64,000 nt of DNA from a virus (Duplodnaviria > Caudoviricetes). Positions 13,089-43,657 of the stretch are shown one piece after another; positions within the stretch are counted from its first letter, which is position 1, and each line of letters starts with the position of its first letter. Below the pieces are notes generated by a model that was not told the DNA's origin, searched no databases, and saw only the letters and a program-made list of their open reading frames with translations. The stretch is taken from positions 2,037-66,036 of the IMG/VR virus record IMGVR_UViG_3300045747_000167; one strand, given 5' to 3'. A program made the translations under genes and the position numbers.

Positions 13089-13103
13089 TGGCGACCACCA
13101 CCC

Positions 13104-13196: not shown

Positions 13197-13610
13197 ATGA
13201 CCGTTCAGTACAGCACTACCGTGCGCGCCGCGATGGCCGATGCCTGGGAAACCGCCCAGGGCACCGCCGTCAAGGTACGCATCTACACCGGCACGCAGCC
13301 TGCCAGCTGCGCCACCGCCGCCAGCGGCACGCTCATCATCGAATTTGCGCTGGCAAGCGATTGGGCGACCAACCCCGGCACGGGCGTGAAGGTGCTCAAC
13401 GGCCTGCCTCTGAGCGGAGCAGCCACGGGCGCCGGAACCAACACGGCCGGGCACTACCGCTTCTACGACACGGCTGGCACCAACTGCCACGAGCAGGGCA
13501 GCATCACGGCCACGGGCGGCGGTGGCGACATGACCATCGACAACACGTCGATCGCCAGCGGGCAGACCGTGCAAGTCACGGGCTACACGAAGACCTGGCC
13601 CGGCGCATAA
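13197..13610 (+). CDS. putative virion structural protein
   Basis: GAGG RBS; RIYTGTQP...GTAGHYRF...QGSIT..GGGGDM pattern seen in phage structural proteins. Confidence 0.7.
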   Translation: MTVQYSTTVRAAMADAWETAQGTAVKVRIYTGTQPASCATAASGTLIIEFALASDWATNPGTGVKVLNGLPLSGAATGAGTNTAGHYRFYDTAGTNCHEQGSITATGGGGDMTIDNTSIASGQTVQVTGYTKTWPGA

Positions 13611-20158: not shown

Positions 20159-20162
20159 TGCC

Positions 20163-21827
20163 ATGGCCATCGACATCCACAAGTTCGGCGGCGTCGCACC
20201 AGCGCTGACTCCCTGGAAGCTGCCACTGGGCATGGCCCAGATTGCAGAGAACATCAACCCAGACTCGCGCACGGTCAAGCCGTGGAACGACGTCATCGTC
20301 GACGCCACCGGGTTCACTGCCGGCGCCACCACGACCATCTACCGGTTCGGCCGGAGCCTCATATCGGACGTCAGCTACTGGTTCCAGTGGGCCTACGACG
20401 TCGACGTGGTCAAGGGTCCGATCATCGCGGACACCGCAGAGCGCACGTTCTGGACGGGGCAGGGCGCTCCGAAGTGGACCAACTCGACCCTGGCCCTGAC
20501 CAGCGCCCCGTACCCGGCGGCCTACCGCGACCTCGGCGTGACGCGCCCGGTCACGGCGCCCACGATGACGGTCACCGGATCGGCGACCTCGAACGACTAC
20601 CAGGTGGTGGGCTACGCCTACACCAACGTGACGGCCTACGGCGAAGAGTCGGCGCCTTCGGCGATCTGCACCGGCCAGAAGGTCTACTCGGGCCAGACGG
20701 CCAGCTGCAGCGCCTTCGATGCGCTGCCCACCGGCACCGGCTCATGCGTCGCGCGCCGGCTGTACCGCACCGTCACGAGCAGCACCGACACCAACCTGTA
20801 CTTCGTCAAGGAGTCGGCCGACTCGACCGTCATCGACGACGTCGGGACCAACATCGGCGAGGCCATCCAGACCACCGCATGGGATCCGCCTTCGAGCACG
20901 CTGTTCGGCCTTATCGCGATGGCCAACGGGATCCTGATCGGGTTCGACGGCTACGACGTGTGCCCGAGCGCCCAGTACGCCCCCTACGCATGGCCGAGAC
21001 GGTACAAGCTGTCGACCGACTGGCCGATCGTCGGCGGCTGTTCGCTGGGCACGCAGGCGGTGGTCCTCACCTGGGGCAACCCGTACATGCTGTCCGGCAC
21101 CTCGCCGGACTCGCTGACCCTGACGAAGCTGGACACGCCCGAGGCCTGCGTCAGCAAGCGCTCGATCGCCAACATCTCCAGCGAGATGCCGTCCATGACC
21201 GGGACCAACATCCGCGTCGGCACGGTCTTCTACGCCAGTGCGAACGGGCTGTGCTCGATCGACTCCGGCGGCAACGTGCGCAACGTCACCGAGAAGTACT
21301 TCAATCGGGCCGACTGGCAGGCCATGGCGCCGACCTCGATGCAGGGCTTCACCTACAACGGGCGCTACTTCGGCTTCTTCAACACCGGAGCGGTGCAGGG
21401 TGGGTTCTGCTACGACCCGCGGGGCGAAGACGCTGCGGTGACGCTCTTCCCGTTCTACGCGACGGGCGGCTTTGCGGACATCGCGACCGGCCATCTGCAC
21501 CTCCAGGTGGGCACGCAGATCGTTCAGTGGAACGCCGCCGGCACGCCGCTGACGGCGACCTGGCGTTCGGGCGTGATCGAGACGCCGATGCAGACCTACA
21601 AGTTCGCTGCCGTCCTGGCGCGGGCCTACGCCGGCGCAGTCACCTTCCAGCTGTATGCCGACGGCAACCTCATCTGGACCGAGGTCGTGCAGAACGCCCG
21701 GCCGTTCAAGCTGCCGGGCGACGACAAGGCCTTCCAGTGGGAGATCGTGATCACGACCACCTCTGAGGTCTATGAGGTGGTCCTGGCGCGCAGTGCCGAG
21801 GACATGGAACAGGCGGGGAACCAGTGA
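20163..21827 (+). CDS. tail nozzle/stabilisation protein
   Basis: FGGVAP...LP...AQ.AEN N-terminus, YAYT.VT.YGEESAPS, PYAWP, CVSKRSI. Confidence 0.75.
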   Translation: MAIDIHKFGGVAPALTPWKLPLGMAQIAENINPDSRTVKPWNDVIVDATGFTAGATTTIYRFGRSLISDVSYWFQWAYDVDVVKGPIIADTAERTFWTGQGAPKWTNSTLALTSAPYPAAYRDLGVTRPVTAPTMTVTGSATSNDYQVVGYAYTNVTAYGEESAPSAICTGQKVYSGQTASCSAFDALPTGTGSCVARRLYRTVTSSTDTNLYFVKESADSTVIDDVGTNIGEAIQTTAWDPPSSTLFGLIAMANGILIGFDGYDVCPSAQYAPYAWPRRYKLSTDWPIVGGCSLGTQAVVLTWGNPYMLSGTSPDSLTLTKLDTPEACVSKRSIANISSEMPSMTGTNIRVGTVFYASANGLCSIDSGGNVRNVTEKYFNRADWQAMAPTSMQGFTYNGRYFGFFNTGAVQGGFCYDPRGEDAAVTLFPFYATGGFADIATGHLHLQVGTQIVQWNAAGTPLTATWRSGVIETPMQTYKFAAVLARAYAGAVTFQLYADGNLIWTEVVQNARPFKLPGDDKAFQWEIVITTTSEVYEVVLARSAEDMEQAGNQ

Positions 21828-27168: not shown

Positions 27169-27528
27169 GTGCAGGAAGCCGCCTCGCGCCGCGAGCTGAT
27201 GGCGATGTGGCGGCACCTGATCGAACCGGTGCTGCTCGACGGCATCCAGCCGATCCAGTGGGACGAGGCGCTGCAGCTCAATGCGCGCGTGACGTCGCAG
27301 CGAGAGTCGGTCCTGATGACGGTCGACGGTGATCTGGGCGACTCGCGCGTGAGGACTGTGGTGGTGGCGGCCGGCGACATGCATGACGTGTGCGACCTGG
27401 TGGCTGAGATGGAAGACGACGCTCGTGCGTGCGGCTGCAAGAAGGTCTTGTATGTCGGCCGCCAGGGCTGGCACCGGGTGATGCCCGGCTACAAGGTTGC
27501 CGCCGTGATTGGCGCGAAGGAGCTGTGA
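27169..27528 (+). CDS. GNAT-like tail-region protein
   Basis: ARACGC...GRQGW.RV pattern; precedes ejection proteins. Confidence 0.55.
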   Translation: MQEAASRRELMAMWRHLIEPVLLDGIQPIQWDEALQLNARVTSQRESVLMTVDGDLGDSRVRTVVVAAGDMHDVCDLVAEMEDDARACGCKKVLYVGRQGWHRVMPGYKVAAVIGAKEL

Positions 27529-27529
27529 C

Positions 27530-29302
27530 ATGGGCGGCATTGTTAGCGGGATCCTCAACGCAGTCGGGCTGATCCCCGACGCGCCCGACATGACGCCTGT
27601 GGCCAACGCCACGGCGCAGGCATCCGATCTGGCCGCCAAGACGGCGCAGCAGCAGCTCGACTTCGCCAAGCAGCAGTACGCCGACCAGAAGCCGCTGGTG
27701 GACGCCGCCGGCAAGGCTGCGCTGGCGTCGAACGCGCAGGACCAGGCCATCGCCAAGCAGGCCGCCGAGCGCTCGCAGACCGCCTGGACGCAGAACCAGA
27801 ACGCGACGCAGGGTGCCGTCGGGCAGATGGGCCTCAACGCCCTCGGCGCCCAGTACCTCAACCCTGAGCAGACGTCCCAGCTACAGGCCGCGCAGGCCGT
27901 CCTGGCCAACCCAGCCGCCACGCCCGAGCAGCGCACCGCGGCGCAGTCGCAGCTGGCCGCCCTGCAGAAGGCGGCCGAGACCGCCGGCATCGGCCTGGAG
28001 CAGGCCAAGGGCACGAACCTGGTGAACACTGCGCAGGGGCAGGCCGATCAGGTCAACTCAGCCTTCGGTACGAACGCCACCGCCACCAAGCAGGGCGGCA
28101 CCGACTATGCCTCCGGCCTGGCAGACATCGGCTCGAAGTTCGGCACCCAGGCGATCGGCATCGGCGAGCAGGATGCGCAGGCCGCGCTCGACAACGCAGA
28201 CACGATCGGCGGCCAGCTGCAGTCGATCGCCAAGCAGCGTGCCGCCGACTTCGAGAAGAACGCCGGCACGCAAGCGAACGCAGACATCGCGAACTCGGCA
28301 GACCAGGCGAACCGGCAGCTGTTGCGCCTGGGTGGCGACCCGAACAAGATGGCCGCCATGGGCGCCGACATCGCGAACTCGCAGCAGCTCGCGCGGATCG
28401 GCTCCGGCAATCAGGTCGCCAGCATCAACATCGCGAACCTGAACGCAGCCGACGACAAGGCGCTGGGCCTCAAGTCCTCGGCGCTGGATGCGGCGCGCGC
28501 GTCCCGCACCCAGGCGAAGGAGACGGCGCTCGGGATGAACCTGAACGCGGCGCAGGGCGGCCTGTCCGCGGTGACCAGCGCCAACCAGTCGGCCGCCGAC
28601 AAGACGCTGCAGGGCAATACCACCGGCCAGAGCCTGACATTCAACGCGCAGAACCAGGCCAACTCGCTCAACAACAACGCCAAGGACAAGGTCGATGCTG
28701 GCCTGAACTCGCTGCAGCAGGGTGCCGCGAACTACGGCGCCGGCTTCGCGAACACCTCTGGGCAGAACGCGCAGAACGCTGTCGTGGCCGGCACGGCTGG
28801 CGTCAACGGCCTGGCGACGGCGGTGAACAGCGGCAACCAGACCACCAGCACCACGCTGGGCGGCATGAACGGCGGCATGACTGCGGCGCAGATCCAGAAC
28901 ACCGGCGCGCTGGGGCTGGCGAACGCGAACACCAACCAGTACAACGCCGAGGCGAACGCCATCAACGGCGCCGTCAAGAACATCGCCGGGATGATTGGCA
29001 CCAACCCGACCACCGGGATCGTCAGCGACAAGAAGGCAAAGAAGAACCGCAAGCCGGTGGATGACGACGCCGCGCTGGAGGGCCTGGAGGCTGTTGCCCC
29101 CGAGAGCTGGTCCTACAAGAAGGGCGTGGCAGATGGCGGCAAGCATGTCGGCCCGATGGCCCAGGACATGAACGAAGAGTTCGGCGAGCAGGTCGCACCC
29201 GGCGGCAAGCAGATCGACGTCATCTCGAACCTCGGCCTGCACCACGCTGCCATTCGCGCGCTGGCCAAGAAGGTCGGCCACCTGGAGCGGAGACGCGCAT
29301 GA
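27530..29302 (+). CDS. DNA ejection protein with C-terminal peptidase S74-like domain
   Basis: A/Q/G/N-rich body; SDKKAK.N...WSYK...HVGPMAQD. Confidence 0.75.
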   Translation: MGGIVSGILNAVGLIPDAPDMTPVANATAQASDLAAKTAQQQLDFAKQQYADQKPLVDAAGKAALASNAQDQAIAKQAAERSQTAWTQNQNATQGAVGQMGLNALGAQYLNPEQTSQLQAAQAVLANPAATPEQRTAAQSQLAALQKAAETAGIGLEQAKGTNLVNTAQGQADQVNSAFGTNATATKQGGTDYASGLADIGSKFGTQAIGIGEQDAQAALDNADTIGGQLQSIAKQRAADFEKNAGTQANADIANSADQANRQLLRLGGDPNKMAAMGADIANSQQLARIGSGNQVASINIANLNAADDKALGLKSSALDAARASRTQAKETALGMNLNAAQGGLSAVTSANQSAADKTLQGNTTGQSLTFNAQNQANSLNNNAKDKVDAGLNSLQQGAANYGAGFANTSGQNAQNAVVAGTAGVNGLATAVNSGNQTTSTTLGGMNGGMTAAQIQNTGALGLANANTNQYNAEANAINGAVKNIAGMIGTNPTTGIVSDKKAKKNRKPVDDDAALEGLEAVAPESWSYKKGVADGGKHVGPMAQDMNEEFGEQVAPGGKQIDVISNLGLHHAAIRALAKKVGHLERRRA

Positions 29303-30741: not shown

Positions 30742-33700
30742 TTGGCTGAAGAGAACTGGTGGTCGAAGGACTCCCCGGCGCCGGCTCCTGCCGCCCGGCC
30801 AGCGCCGGATGACCAATGGTGGTCCCAGGATAGCCCGGCTGGCCCTACGCCGGCCGGTCAGCAAGCACAGGTCCGTGCCCAGACTGACGCCGACTTCTCG
30901 GGCCCCGAGCCAGGCATGGCCAGCCAGGCTGCCAAGGGCACGTTCGACTCTGTCGGTATGGGCGAGGGCGGCACCATCCGCACGGCCGGCGACATCGCTG
31001 GCGCCACGCCGGAAGGCTTCCTGGCCACCATGGGAAACCTCGGCGGCAAGCTGGTCAAGGGCATCTCCGACGCTGCTGCCAAGGTGCCTGCGGTCAACAT
31101 TGGCTTGCTGGGAGCGAAGGTTGGTGGCCTGGTCAGCAACAGTGTCGCGCACAAGTTCGCCGATGAGACGACGGCGGCGGCGGGATACGCCACCCAGGAG
31201 GGCCGCGATCGGGTCGCTACCGCGCTGGCTGACCCGACTGCCCATCCGATCGAAGCCGCGCGCTACGGCGCATCGCAGGCCGTCAGCGACTACGGCAAGA
31301 AGCAGCAGGAGTTCTACGCCGGCGAGCTGCACAAGGACGCTCCTGCGATGGAGCGCCAGAACAAGGAAGTCCAGGACGCCGAAGGCTTCTGGAACACGGT
31401 CGCCACCTCGCTCGCCAACCCGCTGTCGCTCACCAGCACCGTGGCCCAGTCGTTCCCCGACATGGCCGCTGGCATGGGCATCAGCCGGGCTGCCATGCTC
31501 GGCAAGCAGATCCTATCAACCCCGGTTGGTAAACAGGCGCTGGCCGCCGGCGAAGAGGCATTCCAGAAGACGATCCTCGATGCTGCCGGGAACCCCGCCA
31601 CCTTCGCGGACGCCAGCAAGTTGGCAGCCGCCGCGCGCCAGCAGGCCATCAAGGACACGCTCAAGGCCAACCAGGGTGCGCTCGAGGGCATCGCTGGCGG
31701 CGCCGGCCTGATCGCAGAGTCGGTGCAGTCTGGCGGCAACACGCGCCAGGCTGTGCAGGACTTCGTCAGCCAGCGGCCCGACATGGAGCTGCAGCGGGAC
31801 AACGCGACATACCGCGACCTGCGCATCCACCACAGCGAGGAAGAGGCCAAGGCCATGCTGGGCGATCAGCTCGGCAACCAGGCCGCCGGCTCATCGGCCC
31901 TGTGGACTGGCGCCATGGGCAAGGTGTCCGGCGCTGCTGACGCCTGGGGCCACACGATCGGCGGCGGCAAGGTCACCGGCAAGCAGGCCCTGACCGGCAC
32001 CCTCAAGGAGGGCGGCCAGGAGATGCTGCAGAACCCTGGCGAGGACTTCGCCAAGTACGAGGCACAGGTCCAGGCCGACCCGACGCAGAAGTTCGACCTC
32101 GGCGGCTCGATGGCGCAGGGCCTGATGGGCGGCGTGGCGCAGGGCGGCGGCATGCACGGCACTGGCTACGTGGCCAGCCGCTCCCGCACCGACCCCACAG
32201 AGCCTGCCGTGCTGCTTGCCGGCCGCCCTGTCACGGGCTACACCGATGCGCAACTGAAGCAGTACTCCGAGTCCGGCGTGCTCACCGCGCCGGTGAAGGA
32301 GAAGGTCGACGCTGAGATCGCGCGCCGCGCGCAGCCAGGGGCTGCCCCGGCGCAAGGAGACGCACTTGACACCGCGGTCGACAAGTACGCAGCCGGGCTT
32401 CCCGGAGAGGGTAAGCCGGGCCCTGCAGATGCAGGGGGTGCCGGAGCTGGAGTCGCAGGCGCTGGCCAGGCTGGTGGCCTCGACCCCGCCCGGGTCGCCC
32501 GTGACCGTGCCACCCTACCTGCACAGGGCGATGGACTGCCTGGGCAGGCTGGTGCGCCTGCAGTAGGCAGCATCATCCCGAAGCCTGCAACCACGCAAGG
32601 AACACTCGATGCCATCGAAGAGCAAGCGGCTGAAGCGCGCCGCCAAGCAGCGGCTGATGTTGAGTCTCGCCAGGAAACAGATCGCAAGGCAGCGCTGCGT
32701 GGAGGCGACCCAGCCCAGCCCAACCCTCTCGACAACCTCGCCAACGCTGATGCCGCCCAACGATCTGCCGGTGTGCGACTGGTCGTGGCAGACCATGGCG
32801 GCAGCGCCACTTCGGGAGTGTCCCACCTGGAGTCTGCGAGAACGCGAAACGACGCCAGCCTGGTCAGTGGCCGCGCCTCTCTAGCCAAGCTGGGCGGCAG
32901 CGTCCCAGACCTGCAGCCGATCCAGGACCGTGGCCTGTTCCGCCGGGCCAGCGCAGTGGCAGACGCGATCGAGTCCGTGACGGGGTCAAGGCCGGTGCTG
33001 TACCACGACACGCGCTCCGGTGCAGCCGACGGCTTCGAGCACAACGGCGTGGCCTACGTGAACGCCGGCAACCTGGAGCAGAGCCTCCAGCACACGGTCT
33101 TCCACGAGACCTTCCACGTCGCCGAGCGCCGCGCGCGGCAGGGCGATGCGTCGGCCCAGCAGTTCGTCAAGACCGCCGAGTCGATCTTCGACATGATCTC
33201 GCAGGAGGGCCGGAAGGCCTACGCGGAGAAGTACCTCTTCAAGCACCAGCTCGAGAACGGCGCCATGACCGCCGAAGAAGCGCTGGCTCACCCGAAGCTG
33301 AAGAGCGAGATGATCGCCGACTTCTTCGGCCAACGTGGCAACGACGCCAAGTTCATCCGCCACCTGGCGCAGCGCTCGCCGGAGCACTTCGGTGGCTTCG
33401 CCCGCCGGTGGATCGACTCGCTGACCAACATGATCCAGCAGCTGCGTGGCTCGCGCGGCAGCTACGGTGCGAAGGACATCGACCAGTACATCCAGAAGCT
33501 GAGCCACGCCAAGGCGGTGGCTGCCAGTGCGCTGATCCAATGGCGGCGCGACAACCCGCGCTTCGCCTCCAACCTGCCGGCCCCGGGCGAGACGCATCGC
33601 CCCGCCAACGCGCGCCAGGCCCGCCTGGACGACCTGCTGTCGGACGACACGCACGCCGCGGTGACGGGCTACAAGCAGAGCGCCAAGCAGACCTACGACG

Positions 33701-36700
33701 TCCTCGAGCCCGGCGCCCGCACGCGCGCCGAGGCGCAGCTCGCCCCGCAGCTCAAGCTGGCCGAGGAGGCAAAGCCCGAGTTCGACCGCCGCCTGATCAA
33801 CATCGCGAACCAGCTGGGCGGCGAGGCGCAGACCCCGCCGGTGAAGGGCATGCAGCGCGCCGCGGTGCGCCTGGTCGTGGACCACAAGGGCGACAATCTG
33901 AAAACTACCGACCTGCTGCGCGGATCGGTGGTGGTGCCGTCCCTGAGCGACATCCCGGCTGCCATGCGCGCGGTCGGCGCCAACTTCCCCGTGGTCCGCA
34001 CGAAGGACCGCTTCACGACGCCCACGAACGACGGCTACCGCGACGTGCTGATGAACGTCCGCATGCCCAATGGCCTGGTCGCCGAGGTGCAGATCCACAC
34101 GCCCGAGACTGCGGCCGCGCGCCAGGCCGGGCACGGTATCTACGAGGATGCCCGCGCGCACCGCGCCGCCGGCAACGAGGCGGCTGCCGCGCCGCTGGAC
34201 GACCTGACCCGGCAACTGCATGGGCAGGCCTACCAGAAGGCGCTGGGTGGCGCCGCGCCGGCGTTCAGCACGAAGCAGTACCCAATGGCCCCGGCTGGAA
34301 CACGGTACGAAGAGCACGCCAAGGCGCCGACCATGATGAGCCCTGACGAGTTCTTGAGTCAGGTGCGGCCGCTTGACATTGACGAGGCGTCTCGAGACAA
34401 CATCGATGACCTCAAGCGGCACATCGAGAGTGGAGGGAAGCTGGATCCGCTGCACATCCGCAAGGATGGCAAGGAGGACGGCCGGCACCGTGCTGTGGCC
34501 TCGCGTGAGCTTGGCATCAAGCTGGTGCCTGTGATTGATGAGCGCGAAGCTACCAGCTTCAGCGACAAGCAGGATCCCGGCACCGAAGACGGCGCACCAC
34601 AGCCCGCCTGGGAGGCGCCGAAGCACAGCCGTGCCGGCGAGGTGACCGACAACGCCCGCTACCAGAGCGGCGCGCGCAAGGGGCAGTACATCGGTGCGCC
34701 GGCCAAGTACAACACGCCGGCCAAGATCCCGACGCTGCGCCGCGCCTTCCTGAACCTGGCGCGCGAGGGCGAGGCCGGGCGCTTCTGGTACGAGAACAGC
34801 GGTCACGCGGTCCTGCAGATGACCTTCAACGACCGGGCCGAGGCGCGCCGGTTCATCGCCCTGCTGGCCATCTACTCGCCCCAAGCGAAGGTCGATGCCA
34901 ACACCACGATGGCACTGCGCGCGTGGGCCCAGTACAAGGCTGGCGTTCCAATCGACACGAAGACTGCTGACCTCGACGCCAAGGCCGACGCGATCCTCTA
35001 CAAGGGTCAGCAGTGGGAGGGCGAGAAGACCAACAACTTCTTCCGCAACCTGTTGCGCCAGGTCGACGAGCAGTCTGGCTCGAAGGACCAGCAGGGCGTC
35101 ACGGTCGACATGTGGATGATGCGCGCCGCCGGCTACGACAAGGATTCCCCTACCGACGCCAACTACCTCTTCGTCGAGAACGAAACCAATCGGCTGGCCA
35201 AGGAGCTTGGCTGGGAGCCGCAGCAGGTCCAGGCCGCGATCTGGGTGGCGATGAAGGCGCGCCTGGAGAACGCTGAAGTCAAGGCCGCCACAGAGAAGGA
35301 GTCGACTCGCAAGGGCTACATGCACTACGAGGACAAGGTCGACCCCGAGACCGGCAAGACCAAACAGGTGCGCGTGGTCGACGATGAGGTCAAGCATCGC
35401 CGCGTCTGGCTCAAGCATGCGATGGCGCTTGCCGTCAGCGAGGGCGACACGCAGCGCGCCAAGTTCGACTTCAGCGACGGCCTGCGCCGGCACCTGGGCC
35501 AGATCAGCTGGGAGGCGAAGCCTGGCCGCCCGACTGGCATCCTGCCCGGCATCCACACTGCCAGCTACCAGCAGCAGGCCGAGTTCCAGAAAGCGGCTGC
35601 AGAGGCCATGACGGGGCCGCATGGGGAGGATCTGCTGGCTCAGAAGCTGGGCTTGCTCCGCGACGGCCAGGTGGCTGCTCCGGGCGTGTGGCAGTCCGAC
35701 GTCGGCGCCGGCATGCAGTACATGGTCCCGATGATCCCGTTGAAGGGCGCCAAGCAGGGCCAGTTCGGCGTCGCGCCGGAAGTGGCCAAGAACCTGAACG
35801 TCTACGCCGCAACGCTTGGCCTGCTGTTCCGCCAGGATGGCGTTGGCTGGCACCGCCCGTTCTTCACCGCCACCGGCCCGAAGGCCAACGCAGTCGACGT
35901 CAGGATCGGCCGCCCGCTGACGCCCGAGGAGGCAAGCTCTCTCTGGACCGAGGTCGACAAGGAGCTGCGCGCCGCCGGCCTGCCGGACTGGGAAAAGAAT
36001 GCCGCTCTGGTGTCAAGCCCCCAAGGCATGCGCCTGATCCAGTTCGGAATCATGGACAATGTCGCCTTCTACAAGGCGATGACGAAGGCGGTCGACCGGG
36101 CGTTCCCGGGAGACATCGACGTCAAGCTGGGCAAGTTTGCCAGCGTTGGCGACATGCCTACGAACGACTGGAAGGTTCACCAAAATGGCGAAGATTACGC
36201 ATCTCGGATTGCTGAAGCCGGGCGATCCGATGTTCTCGGGTTCGCCCGAGATGTTCTCGCGCCGCGCGTTCAAGCCCTCTTCGAAGACTTCAGCCAGCGA
36301 TACGGCTGGGGCGACCCCGGCCAGCTCAGCTTCTCCGGCAAGCAGCGAGACGCCGGAGACGGAAGCGGACGGGATCAGGGCGGAAGCCTTGCGCCGCTCC
36401 CAGGTGCGCCAGCTGTTCAAGGCGCCGCCGGACCAGACCCCCGACTCACAGGGGTAGCGCACGCCTACGCGGCTGAGCGCGGCATCCAGCTGCGCCGCCA
36501 GGCCGAGTACGTCCAGGTCGACCCAGAGCGCGCCGCGCGCATCGCGGCCGCCTACGACGCGATGCCGCACGCGCCGAACGACCCGCGCGTCAAGGCAGCC
36601 TACGCCGACCTGATCCAGCAGACCACGGACCAGTTCCACGCCCTGGAGAAGGCCGGCTACAAGTTCACCTTCTTCGACGGCGCGACAGACCCCTACAAGG

Positions 36701-39700
36701 GCAACCCCTGGAACGCGATGCGAGACCTGCGCGCCAACAAGCGCATGGCGGTCTACGGCACCTATGACGGCTACGGCACCGAGGGCGTCACCAAGGGGAT
36801 GATCGAGGACAACCCCATGCTGGCCGACACCGGCATGCGCTGGCCCGACCAGAAGGGTGTGATGCATCCGGTCCTGGCCAACGACCTGTTCCGCGCCGTG
36901 CATGACGCCTTCGGCCACGGTCTGGAGGGCGCCGGCTTCCGCGCGCAGGGTGAGGAGAACGCCTGGCAGGCGCACGCTCGCATGTTCACTGGCGACGCCG
37001 TCGGCGCGATCACCAGCGAGACCCGCGGTCAGAACAGCTGGCTGAACTACGGCCCCTATGGCGAGAAGAACCGCACCGCCAAGGTCAAGGACACCGTCTT
37101 CGCCGACCAGAAGACCGGGCTGATGCCGGAGTGGACCTGGACCGAGGGGAGCGTCGGCGACGAGGGCGGAATCAACGAGTCCCGCAAGCAGCCACCGGTT
37201 CCCAACGGCCACCTCCAGACCGATCTGCCCGAGGAGGGCAAGATCCAGGCTGGCCGCCGCGTCGTGCAGGACCAGCATCTCCGCATGCGCCAGCTGCGCG
37301 AGTGGGCGACCGAGAACGGCGCCCGCCTGACGCCAGCCTCCGACGCCTACGCCACCGAGGAGCGCATGCACGGCCGCATGGCCAGCAAGATCGAGGACTT
37401 CCGCGAGAAGACCATCAAGCCGCTGGTCGAGAAGACGCAGGCCGCCGGCTTCACCATGGACCAGGTGGCCGAGGTTCTGCACGCCGAGCACGCCCGCGAG
37501 CGCAACGAGCAGGTCGCCAAGATTAACCCGAAGATGCCAGACGCCGGCAGCGGCATGGCCACCGCCGACGCACGCGCCATCCTGGCCCGCACCACGCCCG
37601 AGCTGCGGCAGCTGGCACGCCAGTGGCAGGCCATCACGATCGCCTCGCGCGACGTGCTGCTGAAGGCAGGGATCATCAGCCAGGACATGGCCGACCGCTG
37701 GGACGCGACCTACAAGCACTACGTGCCCCTGAAGGGCGGCGACGAAGAGAGCGCGGCGCGCACCGGCACCGGGCAGGGCCTGAGCGTGAACGGCAAGCAG
37801 AAGCGCGCCATGGGCCACAACGCCCGCGAAGAGCACATCGTCGAGAACATCCTGCAGGACTACGAGCGCTCGGTCATGCTGGCCGAGAAGAACCGCGTCG
37901 GGCAGTCGATGATGCTGTGGCTGACCGAGATGAACGACCCGCGGGTGGGCACCGTCTCGCAGCCGGTCAAGCGTGCCACCCTGATGCCGACCGCGAGCTA
38001 CGACGTGCGCGGCGTGGGCCTGAGTGTGGCCACCTTCGACACCCGAGCCGAGGCCGACAAGTTCATCCGACAGCAGATCGCCGCCAACTCGCCGGGCGCC
38101 AAGCGCCTGAACGTCGTCAAGACGCTGGGCGACCCGACGGTGCAGTACCGCTCGCGCCCGCAGCTCGAAGAGAACGAGGCGATGGTCTACGTCAAGGGGC
38201 ACGCCATCCGCATGCAGCTCGTCGACCCGCTGCTGGCCCAGAGCTACAAGAAGCTGAACGCCGACGGCATGAACCGTCTGATCGCCATCAGCAGGGCATT
38301 CCAGACCTACCTGTCGCGCGCCTACACCGGCTACAACCCGGCCTTCATCGTGCGCAACATGATCCGCGACTTCGGCAGCGGCACGATCAAGCTGACCGGA
38401 AACTTCGGCGCCGGCACGACGGCCAAGATCATCGGGAAGTACCCAGGCGCCCTGGCCAGCATGCTTCGCTACAGCATGACCGGCAAGAGCACGCCGGCGA
38501 TCGACGGCTACCGGGCCAACGGCGGCAGCACGGGCGCCGCCTGGCTGAGCGACATGGAGCGGATCGGGCTGAACATCCAGCACGACTTCGAGCGCTACCA
38601 GGGCGTGATGGCCCAGGTGAAGCAGGGCAAGCCCGGCGCGGCCGCGCGCGTCGCCGCTCGCAAGGTGGTCGGCAGCCTGGTGGGCTGGATCGAGCACCTG
38701 AACGCCGCGACCGAAAACGCCATGCGGTTGGCCACCTACCAGGAGATCCTGAAGGAGACCGGCTCGCCCGAGCAGGCCGCCAGCGCTGCCAAGAACAGCA
38801 CCGTCAACTTCAACCGCAAGGGCGAGAAGACCTCGACGCTGGCTGCCCTGTACCTGTTCTTCAACCCGAGCGTGCAGGACACCGCCAGCGTGGTCGAGAC
38901 GATGACCCGCGGCGCGCACAAGGAGCAGGCGTGGGCCCTGTGCGCCGCCATGACAACCCTGGCCTTCACCGCGGCCGCGCTGCAGTTCGGCGGCGACGAT
39001 GACGCCTACGAGGAGTGGAAGAAGCTCAGCGACTACACCCGCGACAAGAACCTGGTGATCCGGATCGGCAAGGGCAAGTACGTCACCATCCCAGTGCCGT
39101 TCGGGTTCGGCTTCTTCCACACGCTGGGCAACAGCCTCTTCATGATGAGCAAGGGCGAGAGCGCCAACTCGCTGTCGGTCGGCGTGGCCGCCAACATCCT
39201 GGACCACTTCAGCCCGGTCGGCAACCCGATCAACGGCGCCAAAACATGGGGCACGATCAACGGCAAAGGCCTGGTGGAACTCACCCCCGGGCTGGTCGGC
39301 GGCGACCTGTTCCGCGACCTGTTCCGCTGGGCCATCGCCAACCGCACCTCGCTGGGCGGCGACATCGTTCCGGACTCGAAGTTCGACGAGGGCCGCCCCA
39401 ACTTCCTGCGCGAGAACCGCAGCACGAAGGGCACCGCCTTCGACGCCGTGTCGCGCGGCCTGAGCGACGCCACCGGTGGCACGCCGACGCAGGGCGGCAA
39501 GGTCGACATCAGCCCCGAGACGCTGAAGTTCTGGTTCGGCGCGATCTCTGGCGGCACGGGCACGTTCATCTCCGACGCCTTCGCCCTGGCCGGACTGGGT
39601 GTGCGCGCAGCGGTGGCGCCGGCCGGCGAGGACATCTCGTCGCTCAAGCCCGAGATGCACGAGATACCCATCGCGAAGGACTACGTCCGCGAGTCAGGCG

Positions 39701-40050
39701 TCAAGGATGCCCGCCGCGCCTTCTGGGAGGCCTCCAACGAGGCCAAGCTGGCCATCGCAGACCTCAAGCGCGCCACCAAGGCTGGCGATGAGGTCGGGGC
39801 CGAGCGGGTCTACAACGAGAAGGGCGAGATCCTGCATCTGGCCGGGCTGCAGAAGAGCCTCGGCAAGATGATCTCAGCGCAGCGCGACCAGGTGGAGGCG
39901 ATCAACGCCGACAAGACCACCAGCCTGGCGTTCAAGCGCGCCGCGGTGGCGCGCCTGGAGAAGGAAGAGACCGAGATCTACGACGACTTCCTGCGGGCTG
40001 CTACTGAGGCCGGGCACGCTACCGAGGCGCGGAAGGCGGCGGGGCGCTGA
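30742..40050 (+). CDS. large polyvalent virion protein (zincin peptidase, RelA/SpoT synthetase, ParB-like, HhH-glycosylase-like, HDxxGH domain, LPD38)
   Basis: AGGAG + TTG; HETFH...E; DLLRG/GYRD/EVQIH/H..YE; DGRHR; VTVDMWM..QVQAAIW; HDAFGH..GEENAW; TVNFNRKG/LYLFFN/IPVPFGFG. Confidence 0.9.
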   Translation: MAEENWWSKDSPAPAPAARPAPDDQWWSQDSPAGPTPAGQQAQVRAQTDADFSGPEPGMASQAAKGTFDSVGMGEGGTIRTAGDIAGATPEGFLATMGNLGGKLVKGISDAAAKVPAVNIGLLGAKVGGLVSNSVAHKFADETTAAAGYATQEGRDRVATALADPTAHPIEAARYGASQAVSDYGKKQQEFYAGELHKDAPAMERQNKEVQDAEGFWNTVATSLANPLSLTSTVAQSFPDMAAGMGISRAAMLGKQILSTPVGKQALAAGEEAFQKTILDAAGNPATFADASKLAAAARQQAIKDTLKANQGALEGIAGGAGLIAESVQSGGNTRQAVQDFVSQRPDMELQRDNATYRDLRIHHSEEEAKAMLGDQLGNQAAGSSALWTGAMGKVSGAADAWGHTIGGGKVTGKQALTGTLKEGGQEMLQNPGEDFAKYEAQVQADPTQKFDLGGSMAQGLMGGVAQGGGMHGTGYVASRSRTDPTEPAVLLAGRPVTGYTDAQLKQYSESGVLTAPVKEKVDAEIARRAQPGAAPAQGDALDTAVDKYAAGLPGEGKPGPADAGGAGAGVAGAGQAGGLDPARVARDRATLPAQGDGLPGQAGAPAVGSIIPKPATTQGTLDAIEEQAAEARRQAAADVESRQETDRKAALRGGDPAQPNPLDNLANADAAQRSAGVRLVVADHGGSATSGVSHLESARTRNDASLVSGRASLAKLGGSVPDLQPIQDRGLFRRASAVADAIESVTGSRPVLYHDTRSGAADGFEHNGVAYVNAGNLEQSLQHTVFHETFHVAERRARQGDASAQQFVKTAESIFDMISQEGRKAYAEKYLFKHQLENGAMTAEEALAHPKLKSEMIADFFGQRGNDAKFIRHLAQRSPEHFGGFARRWIDSLTNMIQQLRGSRGSYGAKDIDQYIQKLSHAKAVAASALIQWRRDNPRFASNLPAPGETHRPANARQARLDDLLSDDTHAAVTGYKQSAKQTYDVLEPGARTRAEAQLAPQLKLAEEAKPEFDRRLINIANQLGGEAQTPPVKGMQRAAVRLVVDHKGDNLKTTDLLRGSVVVPSLSDIPAAMRAVGANFPVVRTKDRFTTPTNDGYRDVLMNVRMPNGLVAEVQIHTPETAAARQAGHGIYEDARAHRAAGNEAAAAPLDDLTRQLHGQAYQKALGGAAPAFSTKQYPMAPAGTRYEEHAKAPTMMSPDEFLSQVRPLDIDEASRDNIDDLKRHIESGGKLDPLHIRKDGKEDGRHRAVASRELGIKLVPVIDEREATSFSDKQDPGTEDGAPQPAWEAPKHSRAGEVTDNARYQSGARKGQYIGAPAKYNTPAKIPTLRRAFLNLAREGEAGRFWYENSGHAVLQMTFNDRAEARRFIALLAIYSPQAKVDANTTMALRAWAQYKAGVPIDTKTADLDAKADAILYKGQQWEGEKTNNFFRNLLRQVDEQSGSKDQQGVTVDMWMMRAAGYDKDSPTDANYLFVENETNRLAKELGWEPQQVQAAIWVAMKARLENAEVKAATEKESTRKGYMHYEDKVDPETGKTKQVRVVDDEVKHRRVWLKHAMALAVSEGDTQRAKFDFSDGLRRHLGQISWEAKPGRPTGILPGIHTASYQQQAEFQKAAAEAMTGPHGEDLLAQKLGLLRDGQVAAPGVWQSDVGAGMQYMVPMIPLKGAKQGQFGVAPEVAKNLNVYAATLGLLFRQDGVGWHRPFFTATGPKANAVDVRIGRPLTPEEASSLWTEVDKELRAAGLPDWEKNAALVSSPQGMRLIQFGIMDNVAFYKAMTKAVDRAFPGDIDVKLGKFASVGDMPTNDWKVHQNGEDYASRIAEAGRSDVLGFARDVLAPRVQALFEDFSQRYGWGDPGQLSFSGKQRDAGDGSGRDQGGSLAPLPGAPAVQGAAGPDPRLTGVAHAYAAERGIQLRRQAEYVQVDPERAARIAAAYDAMPHAPNDPRVKAAYADLIQQTTDQFHALEKAGYKFTFFDGATDPYKGNPWNAMRDLRANKRMAVYGTYDGYGTEGVTKGMIEDNPMLADTGMRWPDQKGVMHPVLANDLFRAVHDAFGHGLEGAGFRAQGEENAWQAHARMFTGDAVGAITSETRGQNSWLNYGPYGEKNRTAKVKDTVFADQKTGLMPEWTWTEGSVGDEGGINESRKQPPVPNGHLQTDLPEEGKIQAGRRVVQDQHLRMRQLREWATENGARLTPASDAYATEERMHGRMASKIEDFREKTIKPLVEKTQAAGFTMDQVAEVLHAEHARERNEQVAKINPKMPDAGSGMATADARAILARTTPELRQLARQWQAITIASRDVLLKAGIISQDMADRWDATYKHYVPLKGGDEESAARTGTGQGLSVNGKQKRAMGHNAREEHIVENILQDYERSVMLAEKNRVGQSMMLWLTEMNDPRVGTVSQPVKRATLMPTASYDVRGVGLSVATFDTRAEADKFIRQQIAANSPGAKRLNVVKTLGDPTVQYRSRPQLEENEAMVYVKGHAIRMQLVDPLLAQSYKKLNADGMNRLIAISRAFQTYLSRAYTGYNPAFIVRNMIRDFGSGTIKLTGNFGAGTTAKIIGKYPGALASMLRYSMTGKSTPAIDGYRANGGSTGAAWLSDMERIGLNIQHDFERYQGVMAQVKQGKPGAAARVAARKVVGSLVGWIEHLNAATENAMRLATYQEILKETGSPEQAASAAKNSTVNFNRKGEKTSTLAALYLFFNPSVQDTASVVETMTRGAHKEQAWALCAAMTTLAFTAAALQFGGDDDAYEEWKKLSDYTRDKNLVIRIGKGKYVTIPVPFGFGFFHTLGNSLFMMSKGESANSLSVGVAANILDHFSPVGNPINGAKTWGTINGKGLVELTPGLVGGDLFRDLFRWAIANRTSLGGDIVPDSKFDEGRPNFLRENRSTKGTAFDAVSRGLSDATGGTPTQGGKVDISPETLKFWFGAISGGTGTFISDAFALAGLGVRAAVAPAGEDISSLKPEMHEIPIAKDYVRESGVKDARRAFWEASNEAKLAIADLKRATKAGDEVGAERVYNEKGEILHLAGLQKSLGKMISAQRDQVEAINADKTTSLAFKRAAVARLEKEETEIYDDFLRAATEAGHATEARKAAGR
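32366..32566 (+). CDS. candidate nested out-of-frame ORF
   Basis: AGGAG 6 nt before TTG; host-frame GC3 drops across it. Confidence 0.45.
   Translation: MTPRSTSTQPGFPERVSRALQMQGVPELESQALARLVASTPPGSPVTVPPYLHRAMDCLGRLVRLQ
32609..32884 (+). CDS. candidate nested out-of-frame ORF (basic N-terminus)
   Basis: AAGGA before ATG; host-frame GC3 drops. Confidence 0.35.
   Translation: MPSKSKRLKRAAKQRLMLSLARKQIARQRCVEATQPSPTLSTTSPTLMPPNDLPVCDWSWQTMAAAPLRECPTWSLRERETTPAWSVAAPL
36185..36457 (+). CDS. candidate nested out-of-frame ORF (MAKITHLGLLKPGDPMF...)
   Basis: Host frame switches to many A/T-ending codons across this ORF. Confidence 0.45.
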   Translation: MAKITHLGLLKPGDPMFSGSPEMFSRRAFKPSSKTSASDTAGATPASSASPASSETPETEADGIRAEALRRSQVRQLFKAPPDQTPDSQG

Positions 40051-40252
40051 TCCTGTGCTCGATCTCTCCGTCGCAATCTTCAGCCCAGCCATGGCGGTCG
40101 ATGCTGTGCATGCGGCCTTGCAGGTACTCATAGGCCCACTGGTAGGCCGCGATCGCGCGCCCAGCCTCATCCAGCAGGGCCGCGATGTCGTCCGCGCCCT
40201 CGTTCCGGCATAGGTCTGCCTCGTCGCTGAGGCGCTCTTGAAGCGTCATCAC
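40019..40252 (-). CDS. hypothetical protein
   Basis: Last ORF of the leftward arm, converging on the giant gene. Confidence 0.55.
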   Translation of the reverse strand: MMTLQERLSDEADLCRNEGADDIAALLDEAGRAIAAYQWAYEYLQGRMHSIDRHGWAEDCDGEIEHRISAPPPSAPR

Positions 40253-40464
40253 AGAATCCTCATCCGTTCACTGACCACGATAGAGCCGTAGCACACGTCC
40301 ACGGCGGGCTCTTCCATCCAGACGCCCAGCTCCCACGGGATGGCGCCGCTGATCACGAAGCGCTCGATCTCGAGCAGGCTCTGCAGCTTGATCTGCTGGA
40401 TGGCGGCCTGGACCTGTGGGACCATCTCCGCACCGACGAGGTGAGCAAGGGGCTCTGGGTTCAT
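40249..40464 (-). CDS. hypothetical protein
   Basis: Coupled to 40019-40252. Confidence 0.55.
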   Translation of the reverse strand: MNPEPLAHLVGAEMVPQVQAAIQQIKLQSLLEIERFVISGAIPWELGVWMEEPAVDVCYGSIVVSERMRIL

Positions 40465-41753: not shown

Positions 41754-42196
41754 CAGAGCCCCCTCTCGTGCTGTGCGCGGGCACGCATCCGGCGCAGCTG
41801 GCGCGCCACGTACGAGCGACCCCTCTGGTCAAAGAGGTCGCGCTTATCGAAATCGATCCCGAGACTCACCGGCGCCACGAAGCGCGCAGTGATGGTGCCG
41901 CTGCCATCGAAGGAGTTCGGCGTCACCAGATGCATATCCGGCGGGTCGAACGTCATGCAGGATGCGATGTACGTCCGATAACAGATGCGCCGGCTGATCG
42001 GATCCTCGAACTTCTTGTGGCTCACGCGGGTATTGGTGCGCCGCTTGCGCTCGTCCAGCGCGCCCAGCTTGGCAGCCCGCCGGTCGGACAGCAGGAAATC
42101 GATCGCCAGCTCGGGGCGCGTCTTCTTGTAGCGCGCGGTGGCCAGCCGGACCAGCTCGCGCGTCTCGCTGTCGGGGAGGAAGAGGTGGTTGATCAC
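41753..42196 (-). CDS. hypothetical protein
   Basis: AGGAGG RBS, GTG overlapping the int stop. Confidence 0.55.
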   Translation of the reverse strand: MINHLFLPDSETRELVRLATARYKKTRPELAIDFLLSDRRAAKLGALDERKRRTNTRVSHKKFEDPISRRICYRTYIASCMTFDPPDMHLVTPNSFDGSGTITARFVAPVSLGIDFDKRDLFDQRGRSYVARQLRRMRARAQHERGL

Positions 42197-43431
42197 GACT
42201 GCCTCCTGATTGGTGACGCGGCCTGCCCCGCCGATGTGCAGGATTTGGAGGCGTTCGATTTGTCCGCGTCGTTGACCTTGGTAGATGCCGCGATCCAGGC
42301 CTCCAGGCCGGCGACCTCTCGGTCGTCCTGGTCTCCCTTCACCCAGCGGGCATAGGTCGAGTGGAAGATCTCCACGCTGTGCCCCATCTGCCCGGCGCAC
42401 CAGGCCGCCGTGCGCCCTGCCATCAGCATCATGGTGGCGAAGGTATGGCGGGCGTGGTTCGGGGCCCTGTAGCGGATCCCCAGGCGCTTCAGGCAGGGTG
42501 TCCAGTAGCTGCGCCGGAACGCGCGCTCCTCGAGCCATGCCGTGCCGTAGCGCGGGTCCAGCCAGACGTGCTCGCCGGCCAGCTTGGTGTGCTTGGCCTG
42601 CCGCTGCAGGGCCGCCAGCGACCGGCTGTTCAGGCGCACGTCGCGCGACACGCCAGTCTTGGTCTTGGCCTTGTCGACGCCGCGCACGATGGCCTCGTGG
42701 ATGCGCTGGTAGCCGCTGTTGAAGTCGATCGAGCCCCAGCGCAGGCCCGCCATCTCGGACGTCCGCACGCCGCTGTAGAAGCGCCACTCGACCATGTTGG
42801 CCACGGCCTCGGGGCAGTGCGTACGCATGTCGGCGATGATGGCCTCGGCCTCCTGCATCGAGAACGGGTCGGGCGGCTCGCGCTGCCAGCTGGCGCGCGG
42901 GATCTTGGATGCCGGGTTGTCCTTCAGCGTGCCGTCGGTGACCGCCAGCTGCAGCGCCTCGCGCAGCACGCTGACGTAGTTGTTGATCGTCTTGCCGGAC
43001 AGGCTGGCGCGCGCGCCGAGGGCGAGTAGGAAGTGGCTGTGCTTCAGCCCCCGCACCGGGCGGTCGCCGAGCAGCCCGCCGTCGACCGCGGAGCCCTTCC
43101 AGAACTTGATCGCCGAGGTGTAGCCGGCGCGCGTCGAGTGCTCGATGCGCTGCGTGCTGAGCCAGGTGTCCAGCTGCCGGCCCAGCGTCAGCTCGACGCC
43201 GGTGGTGGCATCGTCGCCCGAGGGGAAGTGCTCCGCGTAGCTGAAGGTGCCGAGGCGGATCATCTCCTTCACATCGTGCGAGAAGCGCTCGGCCCAGCGG
43301 ATGTTCGCCGGCGTCGGCGCCATCGGCCTGCCGTTCGTCATGAGCACCGGGCGGCGGCGCTTCCCCTCGAACAGGAAGTCCAGACGCATGCTGTACTTCC
43401 TGACCTCGACCCCAGAACCTGACCTGCCCAT
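42193..43431 (-). CDS. int: tyrosine integrase with N-terminal arm-binding domain
   Basis: GGAGG RBS; GVRTSE (R), HARHTFA (HxxR), MGHS, TYARW (Y). Confidence 0.93.
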   Translation of the reverse strand: MGRSGSGVEVRKYSMRLDFLFEGKRRRPVLMTNGRPMAPTPANIRWAERFSHDVKEMIRLGTFSYAEHFPSGDDATTGVELTLGRQLDTWLSTQRIEHSTRAGYTSAIKFWKGSAVDGGLLGDRPVRGLKHSHFLLALGARASLSGKTINNYVSVLREALQLAVTDGTLKDNPASKIPRASWQREPPDPFSMQEAEAIIADMRTHCPEAVANMVEWRFYSGVRTSEMAGLRWGSIDFNSGYQRIHEAIVRGVDKAKTKTGVSRDVRLNSRSLAALQRQAKHTKLAGEHVWLDPRYGTAWLEERAFRRSYWTPCLKRLGIRYRAPNHARHTFATMMLMAGRTAAWCAGQMGHSVEIFHSTYARWVKGDQDDREVAGLEAWIAASTKVNDADKSNASKSCTSAGQAASPIRRQS

Positions 43432-43444
43432 GGCGCCTCCGTGT

Positions 43445-43485
43445 ATGCAGATTTGCATTCTACAGGCACACCACTTACTTGGCAA
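43445..43485 (-). promoter_or_regulatory. sigma70 promoter for int with overlapping operator
   Basis: TTGCCA (43485-43480)-N17-TAGAAT (43462-43457); ATGCA-gatt-TGCAT at 43445-43458. Confidence 0.65.
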
Positions 43486-43657
43486 GCACCCAGTTCTGCA
43501 CACCTCGTAAATCGATCCAGATCTGCCCGCTGGGGTCGCGGTGAAATTGCCTACCGTCGACCCACTGACCGCGGTAGATCTTGCCTTCAATGGCGCGCTT
43601 CGTCAGCCCGAGCAGCTCGACGGCGCGCTTGATGGTGACGAGGTTGTCGAGGCTCAC
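43475..43657 (-). CDS. xis: excisionase
   Basis: VTIKRAVELLGLTKRAIEGKIYRGQW..G......G.IWIDL..V..WV wHTH, immediately upstream of int. Confidence 0.8.
   Translation of the reverse strand: MSLDNLVTIKRAVELLGLTKRAIEGKIYRGQWVDGRQFHRDPSGQIWIDLRGVQNWVLAK

Follow-up and report, generated by a model that had tools for sequence, protein, structure and literature searches.

A Tas1-like synthetase module in a giant virion-type phage protein, with an Aph1-type hydrolase as its candidate antidote

The window analysed here is a stretch of 64,000 nucleotides (bases 2037–66036) of the linear, 66,036-base virus record IMGVR_UViG_3300045747_000167 (Duplodnaviria; Caudoviricetes), whose completeness is estimated at 78%. 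One open reading frame (ORF) encodes a giant protein of 3,102 amino acids (aa), and residues 984–1174 of this giant form a 191-aa module that is, on its sequence and predicted structure, a RelA/SpoT-type synthetase, chance similarity being ruled out. Judged by profile bit scores, the module is closer in sequence to Tas1 than to synthetases of the guanosine alarmones (p)ppGpp or to tRNA-modifying toxic small alarmone synthetases (toxSAS). The phage also encodes an Aph1-like hydrolase of the adenosine alarmones (p)ppApp. Taken together, the findings incline us towards a virion-delivered (p)ppApp synthetase for which the phage-encoded Aph1-type enzyme serves as antidote, the product and the delivery being argued from homology.

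Results

Synthetase module

An earlier note, made from the sequence alone, had described a module of about 190 residues with five RelA/SpoT-like motifs, bounded by two S-x-K-Q motifs. All five are present in the translation of bases 33691–34263 (plus strand), which is open throughout and contains PPVKGMQRA, TTDLLRGS, DGYRDV, AEVQIHT and HGIYE. The flanks are likewise as described, with S-A-K-Q ending directly before the module and S-T-K-Q starting two residues after it. The Pfam RelA_SpoT model (PF04607) matches the module with an E-value of 3.6e-4 and 21.2 bits, below its 27-bit gathering cut-off. At E ≤ 0.001 it reaches 11 of 34 relatives, and the copy in Bordetella phage vB_BbrM_PHB04 scores 30.6 bits; the model under-detects this branch of the family.

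Searches of PDB sequences with the module (phmmer) returned Tas1 first (6ox6_A, E 2.2e-7), with RelA and YwaC lower. A search of 1.84 billion cluster representatives yielded 2,496 proteins at E ≤ 0.001, of which 810 passed E ≤ 1e-10. A family profile built from 34 sequences (33 short relatives and the module) matched Tas1 in the PDB with 99.7 bits (E 2.4e-27), followed by YwaC (28.6 bits, 1.1e-5), the small alarmone synthetase (SAS) SaSAS (27.5 bits, 2.4e-5) and RelA (22.4 bits). At E ≤ 10 the profile matched no CapRel or FaRel2 chain, and only Rel, RelA and SAS chains were added.

The AlphaFold2 model of the module, computed from the 34-sequence alignment, has a mean predicted local distance difference test (pLDDT) of 95.9 and a predicted template modelling score of 0.89, with low pLDDT in tail residues 185–191. 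Foldseek placed Tas1 first (E 9e-9), then RelP, SAS1/2, Rel and SpoT; 73 PDB entries matched at E ≤ 0.001, and all 24 of the matches listed, to rank 46, were RelA/SpoT-family synthetases. Alignment with VIA-align gave Tas1 a Z-score of 17.0 (root-mean-square deviation 2.6, 168 residues aligned), and gave 16.8 for SAS1, 16.3 for SAS2/RelP, 15.2 for SaEAS, 14.1 for CapRel and 7.8 for FaRel2. In these comparisons the model has the five-stranded mixed sheet and flanking helices of the nucleotide pyrophosphokinase fold. Absence of the RelA/SpoT fold, which the earlier note had named as grounds for giving up the assignment, was looked for in the predicted structure; since the fold is present there, the assignment withstands that test.

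Catalytic residues were compared in an alignment of 153 domains, comprising the best 150 of the 2,496 matching clusters, the module, the PHB04 domain and Escherichia coli RelA. Numbered within the module, the catalytic positions are K52, R56, R60, D74, R77, Y116, D118, E132, Q134, H148 and Y151 (giant residues 1035–1134). D74, E132 and a Lys or Arg at position 60 are found in all 153 domains, Y151 in 152, K52 and H148 in 151, R56 and Q134 in 150, and R77 and the pair G115-Y116 in 149. In the profile alignment D74, Y116 and E132 correspond to RelA D275, Y319 and E335. In FaRel2 the equivalent residues are reported to be responsible for Mg2+, for the base of the acceptor and for the adenine of the donor (PMC11782079). 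Mapping by motif suggests the same Mg-binding, acceptor and donor roles in the module, with K52, R56 and R60 as the basic residues that would hold the triphosphate of the donor. The Tas1 profile match, the confident model and the intact catalytic core thus uphold the synthetase identity proposed in the note.

In a FastTree phylogeny of the 153 domains the module pairs with the synthetase domain of a 2,516-aa protein (P0003; 56% identity, support 99). The closest domains include many in giants, 47 of 152 being located in proteins of more than 1,500 aa. On the tree this size class requires at least 16 changes, 7 of them forced by well-supported branches, so the synthetase cassette has repeatedly entered and left giants. 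In ten relatives of 485–545 aa that were compared, a domain of extracellular contractile injection systems (eCIS_core) was found in two, a sub-threshold RelA_SpoT match in three and a MuF domain in none. In P0041 and P0047 the eCIS_core domain directly precedes the synthetase module. Profile-to-profile comparison (hhalign) with the MuF-Apk2 protein of Streptococcus phage IPP34 gave an E-value of 2.3e-4 and a probability of 44%; E. coli RelA is about as remote (E 3.8e-5).

Giant carrier protein

The C-terminal 952 residues of the giant belong to a widespread phage protein class. A tblastn search with this region matched 333 phage records, 331 of them with at least 80% query coverage; the 25 matches listed have about 35% identity over 96–100% of the query. 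Among the 333 records are the Burkholderia phages Bcep22, BcepIL02, DC1, JC1 and BcepMigl, Shiga toxin (Stx)-converting phages, and numerous phages of Ralstonia and Vibrio. PHROG matches to the last ~950 residues include 'DarB-like antirestriction'. Two homologues have been detected in particles by proteomics: JC1 gp69 (4,515 aa) by mass spectrometry of purified virions (PMC9144972), and phi24B gp47 (2,811 aa), which is reported to be abundant in virions and absent from the cryo-EM map, and for which a role as ejection protein has been proposed, as a proposal only (bioRxiv 10.64898/2026.04.10.717836). From these C-terminal homologues we infer that the giant of the window is packaged and ejected, and hence that the synthetase module travels in a virion-delivered protein. 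Of the earlier note's description of the carrier as an injected protein, the virion-type nature stands by homology and by the position of the gene as the last of the virion genes, and ejection has the standing of the proposal for phi24B gp47.

The giant is modular. Pfam domains in it are LPD38 (96.7 bits, residues 2757–2969) and DUF7178 (53.5 bits, residues 1343–1506). With these two, the RelA/SpoT homologue (RSH) module and a weakly ParB-like segment, the giant combines several unrelated effector-type domains, including one of the LPD series, as polyvalent proteins do. Its segments recur in other giants in differing orders and positions: residues 1278–1868 match seven other proteins, residues 1869–2150 match four, and the C-terminus matches at least six. 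For residues 1869–2150, the ESM Atlas returned scores below 0.9.

Five S-x-K-Q motifs divide the giant at module boundaries, and each of the segments so delimited turns up independently in other giants. When the sequence of the giant is shuffled, 0.45 such motifs occur on average, and none of 2,000 shuffles reached five. Among the other giants only the nearest relative, P0003, has four, a number reached by 1 of 2,000 shuffles. As a general linker of giants the motif was considered and rejected: 34 of 46 other giants have none. Related open frames mostly lack it too, with a single motif in two of 12 and no motif in the other 10. Because the motif is missing from most other giants, it is taken as a lineage-specific linker; that it is a protease site is a tentative suggestion, which we rate as possible rather than probable.

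Two segments next to the synthetase module deserve description. Between two S-x-K-Q motifs lies a 98-aa module (residues 1180–1277; bases 34279–34572, plus strand) with a D-G-R-H-R motif and a weak resemblance to the ParB N-terminal domain (Pfam E 0.077; PDB ParB chains E 0.31). Possibly it corresponds to the ParB module of DdrB type that Iyer et al. 2017 describe in phage polyvalent proteins (PMC5512222). Directly before the synthetase module is a region of about 290 residues with the giant's only HExxH motif; this region has the same place, immediately ahead of the synthetase module, in P0003 and P0008. Residues 690–983 gave no Pfam match at E ≤ 1 and no PDB sequence match, and in the ESM Atlas only unnamed viral clusters were found, with an LPD23 lead on 18% of one cluster. 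A single-sequence AlphaFold2 model of the region (pLDDT 56) is too poor to use. By its motif the region is a candidate for the zincin-like metallopeptidase that serves processing in polyvalent proteins.

Hydrolase

The record contains a single HD_4 match, to a 148-aa ORF (36.4 bits against a cut-off of 27.2) that also matches PHROG 990 (E 6.7e-39). In the PDB its best match is the (p)ppApp hydrolase Aph1 (7smg; E 1.1e-17), with residues 6–144 aligned to 10–143 and the H-D pair present; the next PDB match scores 41 bits and is confined to the first 60 residues, and Rel/SpoT hydrolase domains match only the first 60–70 residues. The adenine-specificity signature of Aph1 is D24, R96, D116, R119, K133 and Y134 (Ahmad et al. 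2023, PMC10083569). Five of these six are kept, as D20, D116, R119, K134 and Y135 in ORF numbering, and the five are reported to lie near the Aph1 active site. In the same report wild-type Aph1 has no detectable ppGpp hydrolysis and the double change D24R + R119A allows ppGpp cleavage (PMC10083569). The ORF is, by its sequence, an Aph1-family (p)ppApp hydrolase with an adenine-type signature. It is 38.8% identical to the hydrolase of the pneumococcal Apk2 prophage (phage IPP34).

Genomic context

The coordinates of the features are given in Table 1. The window has a guanine-plus-cytosine (GC) content of 65%, and the third-position GC of the giant ORF (0.88) is similar to that of other genes in the window. 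Its TTG start at 30742 is preceded 8 nt upstream by AGGAG and abuts the stop of the upstream gene at 30732. The public gene call starts 58 codons later, at ATG 30916, and gives 3,044 aa; the TTG has the better ribosome-binding site.

Table 1 Features of the giant protein gene, the hydrolase gene and their surroundings, in window coordinates.
Feature	Position	Strand	Remark
Terminase and portal genes		+	Upstream of giant
Major head protein	16863–18167	+	Upstream of giant
Internal virion protein	20109–21827	+	Upstream of giant
Tail fibre genes and virion structural protein		+	Upstream of giant
Giant ORF, 3,102 aa	30742–40050	+	Large polyvalent virion-type protein; last gene of rightward structural block
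H-E-T-F-H, residues 788–792	33103–33117	+	Only HExxH in giant; candidate in-cis metallopeptidase
S-A-K-Q linker motif, residues 980–983	33679–33690	+	Directly before synthetase module
Tas1/Apk-like RelA-SpoT synthetase module, 191 aa	33691–34263	+	Residues 984–1174 of giant
S-T-K-Q linker motif, residues 1176–1179	34267–34278	+	After module, by low-pLDDT tail of AlphaFold2 model
S-D-K-Q linker motif, residues 1274–1277	34561–34572	+	End of 98-aa weakly ParB-like module
S-G-K-Q linker motif, residues 1865–1868	36334–36345	+	
S-R-K-Q linker motif, residues 2147–2150	37180–37191	+	Start of conserved C-terminal region
C-terminal 952 aa, including LPD38	37192–40047	+	Common to Bcep22-like, Ralstonia, Vibrio and Stx phage giants
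Small ORF convergent with giant gene	40019–40252	-	Overlaps giant's end by 32 nt
Second small ORF after giant gene	40249–40464	-	
Integrase	42193–43590	-	PHROG 1, E 2.3e-39
Erf-like annealing protein and exonuclease	49898–51513	-	Downstream of giant
Helicase and primase genes		+	Beyond Erf/exonuclease genes
Aph1-like HD-domain (p)ppApp hydrolase, 148 aa	59505–59951	-	Last gene of leftward block; candidate enzymatic immunity

The presence of integrase, exonuclease and Erf-like genes indicates that the phage is temperate. The two small ORFs that follow the giant gene had no match in phage records or PDB sequences. Also in the structural region is a 597-aa virion protein (27509–29302, plus strand) with a C-terminal Peptidase_S74 intramolecular chaperone domain (E 6.7e-10), an ending typical of self-cleaving tail fibres or spikes. 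The hydrolase gene has HNH, primase and helicase genes on one side and a PHROG 4046 gene on the other; two genes upstream of it in the same leftward block is the gene for a 268-aa protein (60662–61468, minus strand) in which six YdcK beta-solenoid repeats (118.6 bits) and a resemblance to bactofilin were detected. A scan of bases 59000–64000 for promoters and terminators found nothing, no tRNA gene was found in the window, and megablast of window bases 20000–44000 matched no phage record. The closest copies of the module in prokaryote genomes (L031, L032) are in metagenome-assembled genomes of Burkholderiales (41% identity) and Tepidimonas (42%). These copies, the 65% GC and the Bcep22-like carrier together suggest a betaproteobacterial host.

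Discussion

The proposed course of events is as follows. The module would be an active pyrophosphokinase of the Tas1 (Apk1) branch, carried as one cassette of a polyvalent protein. By means of its conserved C-terminal region the giant would be packed in the phage head and exit with the DNA, and the module might first be released by cutting at the S-x-K-Q linkers. In the host cytoplasm it would take a pyrophosphate group from ATP and attach it to the 3' hydroxyl of a second ATP or of ADP, giving (p)ppApp and AMP, so that the ATP/ADP pool would fall and purine synthesis would be blocked ahead of any phage gene expression. The Aph1-type hydrolase of the phage would return (p)ppApp to ATP/ADP and would limit the damage in the virion-building cell, in lysogens or after an entry pulse. 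Enzymatic activity, an adenine acceptor, cleavage of the linkers and a functional link between module and hydrolase are what we infer from the comparisons above. A more elaborate version, a timed pulse in which a few linker-cut copies of a very fast synthetase crash host ATP at entry and stall ATP-dependent defences before phage-expressed Aph1 restores ATP for replication, seems to us unlikely.

The earlier note had left open whether the module makes (p)ppGpp, makes (p)ppApp or modifies tRNA. The evidence leans towards (p)ppApp, with Tas1 as the nearest solved relative and the hydrolase of Aph1 type. If the module is active, (p)ppApp is its probable product, because of the Tas1 homology, the Aph1-type partner and the hydrolase of the MESH1 type that accompanies the PHB04 relative; (p)ppApp is the only substrate reported to be common to Aph1- and MESH1-type hydrolases (PMC10083569).

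Several observations weigh against this reading, of which the first group concerns the product. On structure alone Tas1 and SAS1/SAS2 are tied, with Z differences of less than 1, so sequence alone places the module on the Tas1 side. Paulet et al. 2025 report a syn3 motif G-x-N in Apk enzymes and S-x-H in (p)ppGpp synthetases (PMC12226406). The family to which the module belongs has instead an acceptor-loop signature of G-Y-(R)-D-x-(L)-x-N, with D118 in 151 of 153 domains, and the loop of the module (G-Y-R-D-V-L) differs from those of Tas1 (G-Y-S-G-V-N) and of the pneumococcal Apk2 type (Y-K-G-V-N), being neither G-x-N nor S-x-H and resembling no class characterised so far. Compared with the Apk signature as a whole (syn2 of R-Y-T type, syn3 G-x-N, syn4 Y-H), the module does not conform: syn2 is R-G-S, with the Arg at the Apk position three after the Asp, syn4 is I-H and keeps the His, and syn3 is D-V-L. 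In sequence, then, the syn2 Arg and syn4 His look Apk-like and syn3 is of neither type. The hydrolase, too, departs from its model at one signature position, Aph1 R96 being aligned with a Trp.

The structural tie and the acceptor loop lend something to an alternative in which the delivered module makes (p)ppGpp, or both alarmones, and causes a stringent-like shutdown of transcription and translation, not ATP depletion. The near-equal Z-scores (Tas1 17.0, SAS1 16.8, SAS2 16.3) agree with it, as do the G-Y-R of the acceptor loop, which is common to RSH enzymes, and the missing Apk-type G-x-N. Several Tas1 homologues are reported to be promiscuous or guanine-preferring: SaEAS favours guanylate as acceptor, and (p)ppGpp is the product of VpEAS and AaEAS (PMC12691689). 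The partner hydrolase in PHB04 is MESH1-like, and MESH1 is reported to cleave both alarmones (PMC10083569). The guanine-side S-x-H motif is, however, also missing, the family profile scores Tas1 70 bits above every (p)ppGpp synthetase, and the hydrolase of the phage is of Aph1 type and keeps D24 and R119, the residues reported to exclude ppGpp in Aph1. We therefore regard (p)ppGpp as an unlikely product and retain (p)ppApp as the preferred one.

A second group of observations bears on the pairing of the two activities and on delivery. Some 19 kb separate the hydrolase gene from the end of the giant gene; the two are on opposite strands and do not form an operon. No PDB match that would point to a Tis1-like binding immunity was obtained for ORFs 59961–60275, 40019–40252 or 40249–40464. 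Pfam finds neither the PAAR domain that delivers Apk1 nor the MuF domain that delivers Apk2 in the 3,102-aa giant, and its packaging and ejection are argued from homologues of about 35% identity. With an 11-sequence alignment as query, a locus search located the module at 18 loci in viral records and at 14 in prokaryote genomes, compared with one locus from a scan with a single protein. An HD_4 gene is present in 7 of the 18 module-bearing viral records and missing from 11, including two of the three that are 100% complete. Of these seven, six resemble PHB04 in having a hydrolase of MESH1 type beside the module, and are relatives of one phage type; in the seventh (G004), a phage with a 3,859-aa giant, the Aph-like gene is at the contig edge, far from the module. 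At the prokaryote-genome loci an Aph-like ORF occurs within 10 kb in only 1 of 14.

On this evidence module and hydrolase might be unpaired, the hydrolase countering toxins of hosts or competitors (toxSAS defence systems or Tas1-type effectors of type VI secretion systems) and the module acting without protection or as an interbacterial toxin released at lysis. Most Aph homologues are reported not to adjoin phage toxin genes, and Ahmad et al. 2023 describe injection of MuF-fused Apk toxins as open (PMC10083569). Against this, 7 of 18 is far above a rough background of 212 phage records with an Aph-like match in 50,697 (pneumococcal prophages being among those listed), a comparison across different databases and thresholds in which six of the seven positives are related. 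A giant-protein phage other than the one studied here (L007/L028) likewise has an Aph-like gene far from its module, and three characterised or annotated phage systems couple both activities. We consider an unpaired arrangement rather improbable and prefer the hydrolase as antidote to the module.

Least likely of all, and in our judgement quite improbable, is that the module pyrophosphorylates the 3' CCA adenosine of tRNA like FaRel2, CapRel and PhRel2 and stops translation at entry: the toxSYNTH fold is common to all (CapRel Z 14.1), neither alarmone class has an acceptor loop like that of the module and the target base would still be adenine, but the family profile matches neither CapRel nor FaRel2 at E ≤ 10, FaRel2 reaches a Z-score of only 7.8, basic residues near the acceptor Tyr are kept (K105 in 128, R107 in 144 and R117 in 119 of the 153 domains), which would fit the larger positive patch reported for nucleotide-using enzymes (PMC11782079), and no pZFD-type antitoxin was seen, no search being aimed at it. 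What tRNA-modifying toxSAS produce can, according to one report, also be neutralised by small alarmone hydrolases, which act promiscuously (PMC11782079), so the presence of a hydrolase does not settle what the module makes.

Comparison with known systems

An RSH domain that enters the cell with phage DNA is not a new idea. In 2017 Iyer, Burroughs, Anand, de Souza and Aravind described RelA/SpoT domains both within the polyvalent proteins of phages and fused to MuF, and proposed an alarmone-type shutdown at invasion (PMC5512222); the corresponding suggestion of the earlier note was therefore already in print. As proposed for the giant studied here, their RSH module is one domain of several in a protein delivered with the phage DNA, and both LPD38 and RelA/SpoT are on their list of phage-type modules. 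They name prophages of Spirochaetes and epsilon-Proteobacteria and expect (p)ppGpp-like signalling (PMC5512222), in a paper that predates Tas1, Aph1 and (p)ppApp toxins. In the collection of papers searched, none joins 'polyvalent protein' with 'ppApp'. A 2025 survey of 1,369 Tas1 homologues gives Sec, type VII secretion, type III secretion, MuF, eCIS and PAAR contexts, and giant virion proteins are not on the list in the part of the survey available (PMC12691689). The Tas1-like branch is large and mostly unannotated, with its 2,496 clusters and a Pfam model that stays below cut-off on the module.

The carrier has its nearest counterparts in the giants Bcep22 gp75, JC1 gp69 and phi24B gp47, with which it shares the C-terminal 952 residues (about 35% identity). 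In JC1, too, the gene closes the structural block and precedes a pair of small genes on the reverse strand (PMC9144972); the two small ORFs after the giant gene of the window stand where Bcep22-like phages have such a conserved pair. The N-terminal cargo of Bcep22-like, Ralstonia and Stx phage giants is different and is annotated as transglycosylase, helicase and methylase; tblastn found the module in none of these giants and, among the 50,697 phage records, in only two, both of PHB04. Ahmad et al. 2023 leave open whether phage-borne (p)ppApp synthetases ride in particles and are injected (PMC10083569). Since the module is a toxin domain in a protein class that has been detected in virions, a Bcep22-like phage with the cassette would allow a direct test of injection.

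Bordetella phage vB_BbrM_PHB04 (L001, MF663786) has a module of the same family, with G-Y-R-D and E-L-Q-I-H (hhalign E 1e-23), in a short post-portal protein of 493 aa and not in a giant, and an alarmone hydrolase two genes downstream. This hydrolase is of MESH1 type (E 4.6e-36 to human HDDC3), not of Aph1 type. Within bases 11074–13339 of that genome the 493-aa gene is annotated as hypothetical, and the gene annotated 'bifunctional (p)ppGpp synthetase/hydrolase' encodes only a 192-aa MESH1-like hydrolase. A 69-aa ORF lies between the synthetase and hydrolase genes, as in pneumococcal phage IPP34, where the gene order is portal, MuF-toxin, 69-aa ORF and HD hydrolase.

No solved protein is closer to the module in sequence, and none ranks higher in the structural comparison, than Tas1 (Apk1; PDB 6OX6), a toxin of Pseudomonas aeruginosa that is exported by type VI secretion and drains ATP by making (p)ppApp. 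Tas1 and the module share 22–23% identity, an N-terminal helix, the P-x-K-x-x-x-R-x-x-x-K donor motif, D-L-x-R in syn2 and E-x-Q in syn4. Tas1 is the C-terminal toxin of a PAAR protein of the type VI secretion system, whereas the module is internal to a phage giant of virion type. A bolder suggestion, which we likewise consider unlikely, is that the near-invariant G-Y-R-D loop of the 153 aligned domains, many of which belong to giant virion proteins or eCIS effectors, sets apart a further class of Apk type, beside PAAR-Apk1 and MuF-Apk2, that prefers an acceptor different from theirs.

Another close parallel is the Apk2-Aph1 pair of temperate phages of Bacteroides caccae, Streptococcus pneumoniae, Mannheimia and Pasteurella, in which, much as is proposed here, a (p)ppApp synthetase domain on a head-associated protein accompanies an HD hydrolase that reverts (p)ppApp; phage Apk2 is reported with both Tis1-like and Aph1 immunities (Ahmad et al. 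2023, PMC10083569; Paulet et al. 2025, PMC12226406). The pneumococcal Apk2 domain, the one compared by sequence, is remotely similar to the family of the module. The Apk2 carrier is a MuF protein of about 500 aa encoded beside the portal gene, with its immunity genes directly downstream, whereas the window has a 3,102-aa giant and a distal hydrolase. In outline, then, the arrangement is known, polyvalent proteins with RelA/SpoT modules since 2017 and Apk2-Aph1 pairs of phages since 2023. What is modestly new is the Tas1-like clade with the G-Y-R-D loop, common in giant virion-type proteins, together with a gene for an Aph1-type hydrolase remote from that for the module and a lineage-specific S-x-K-Q linker.

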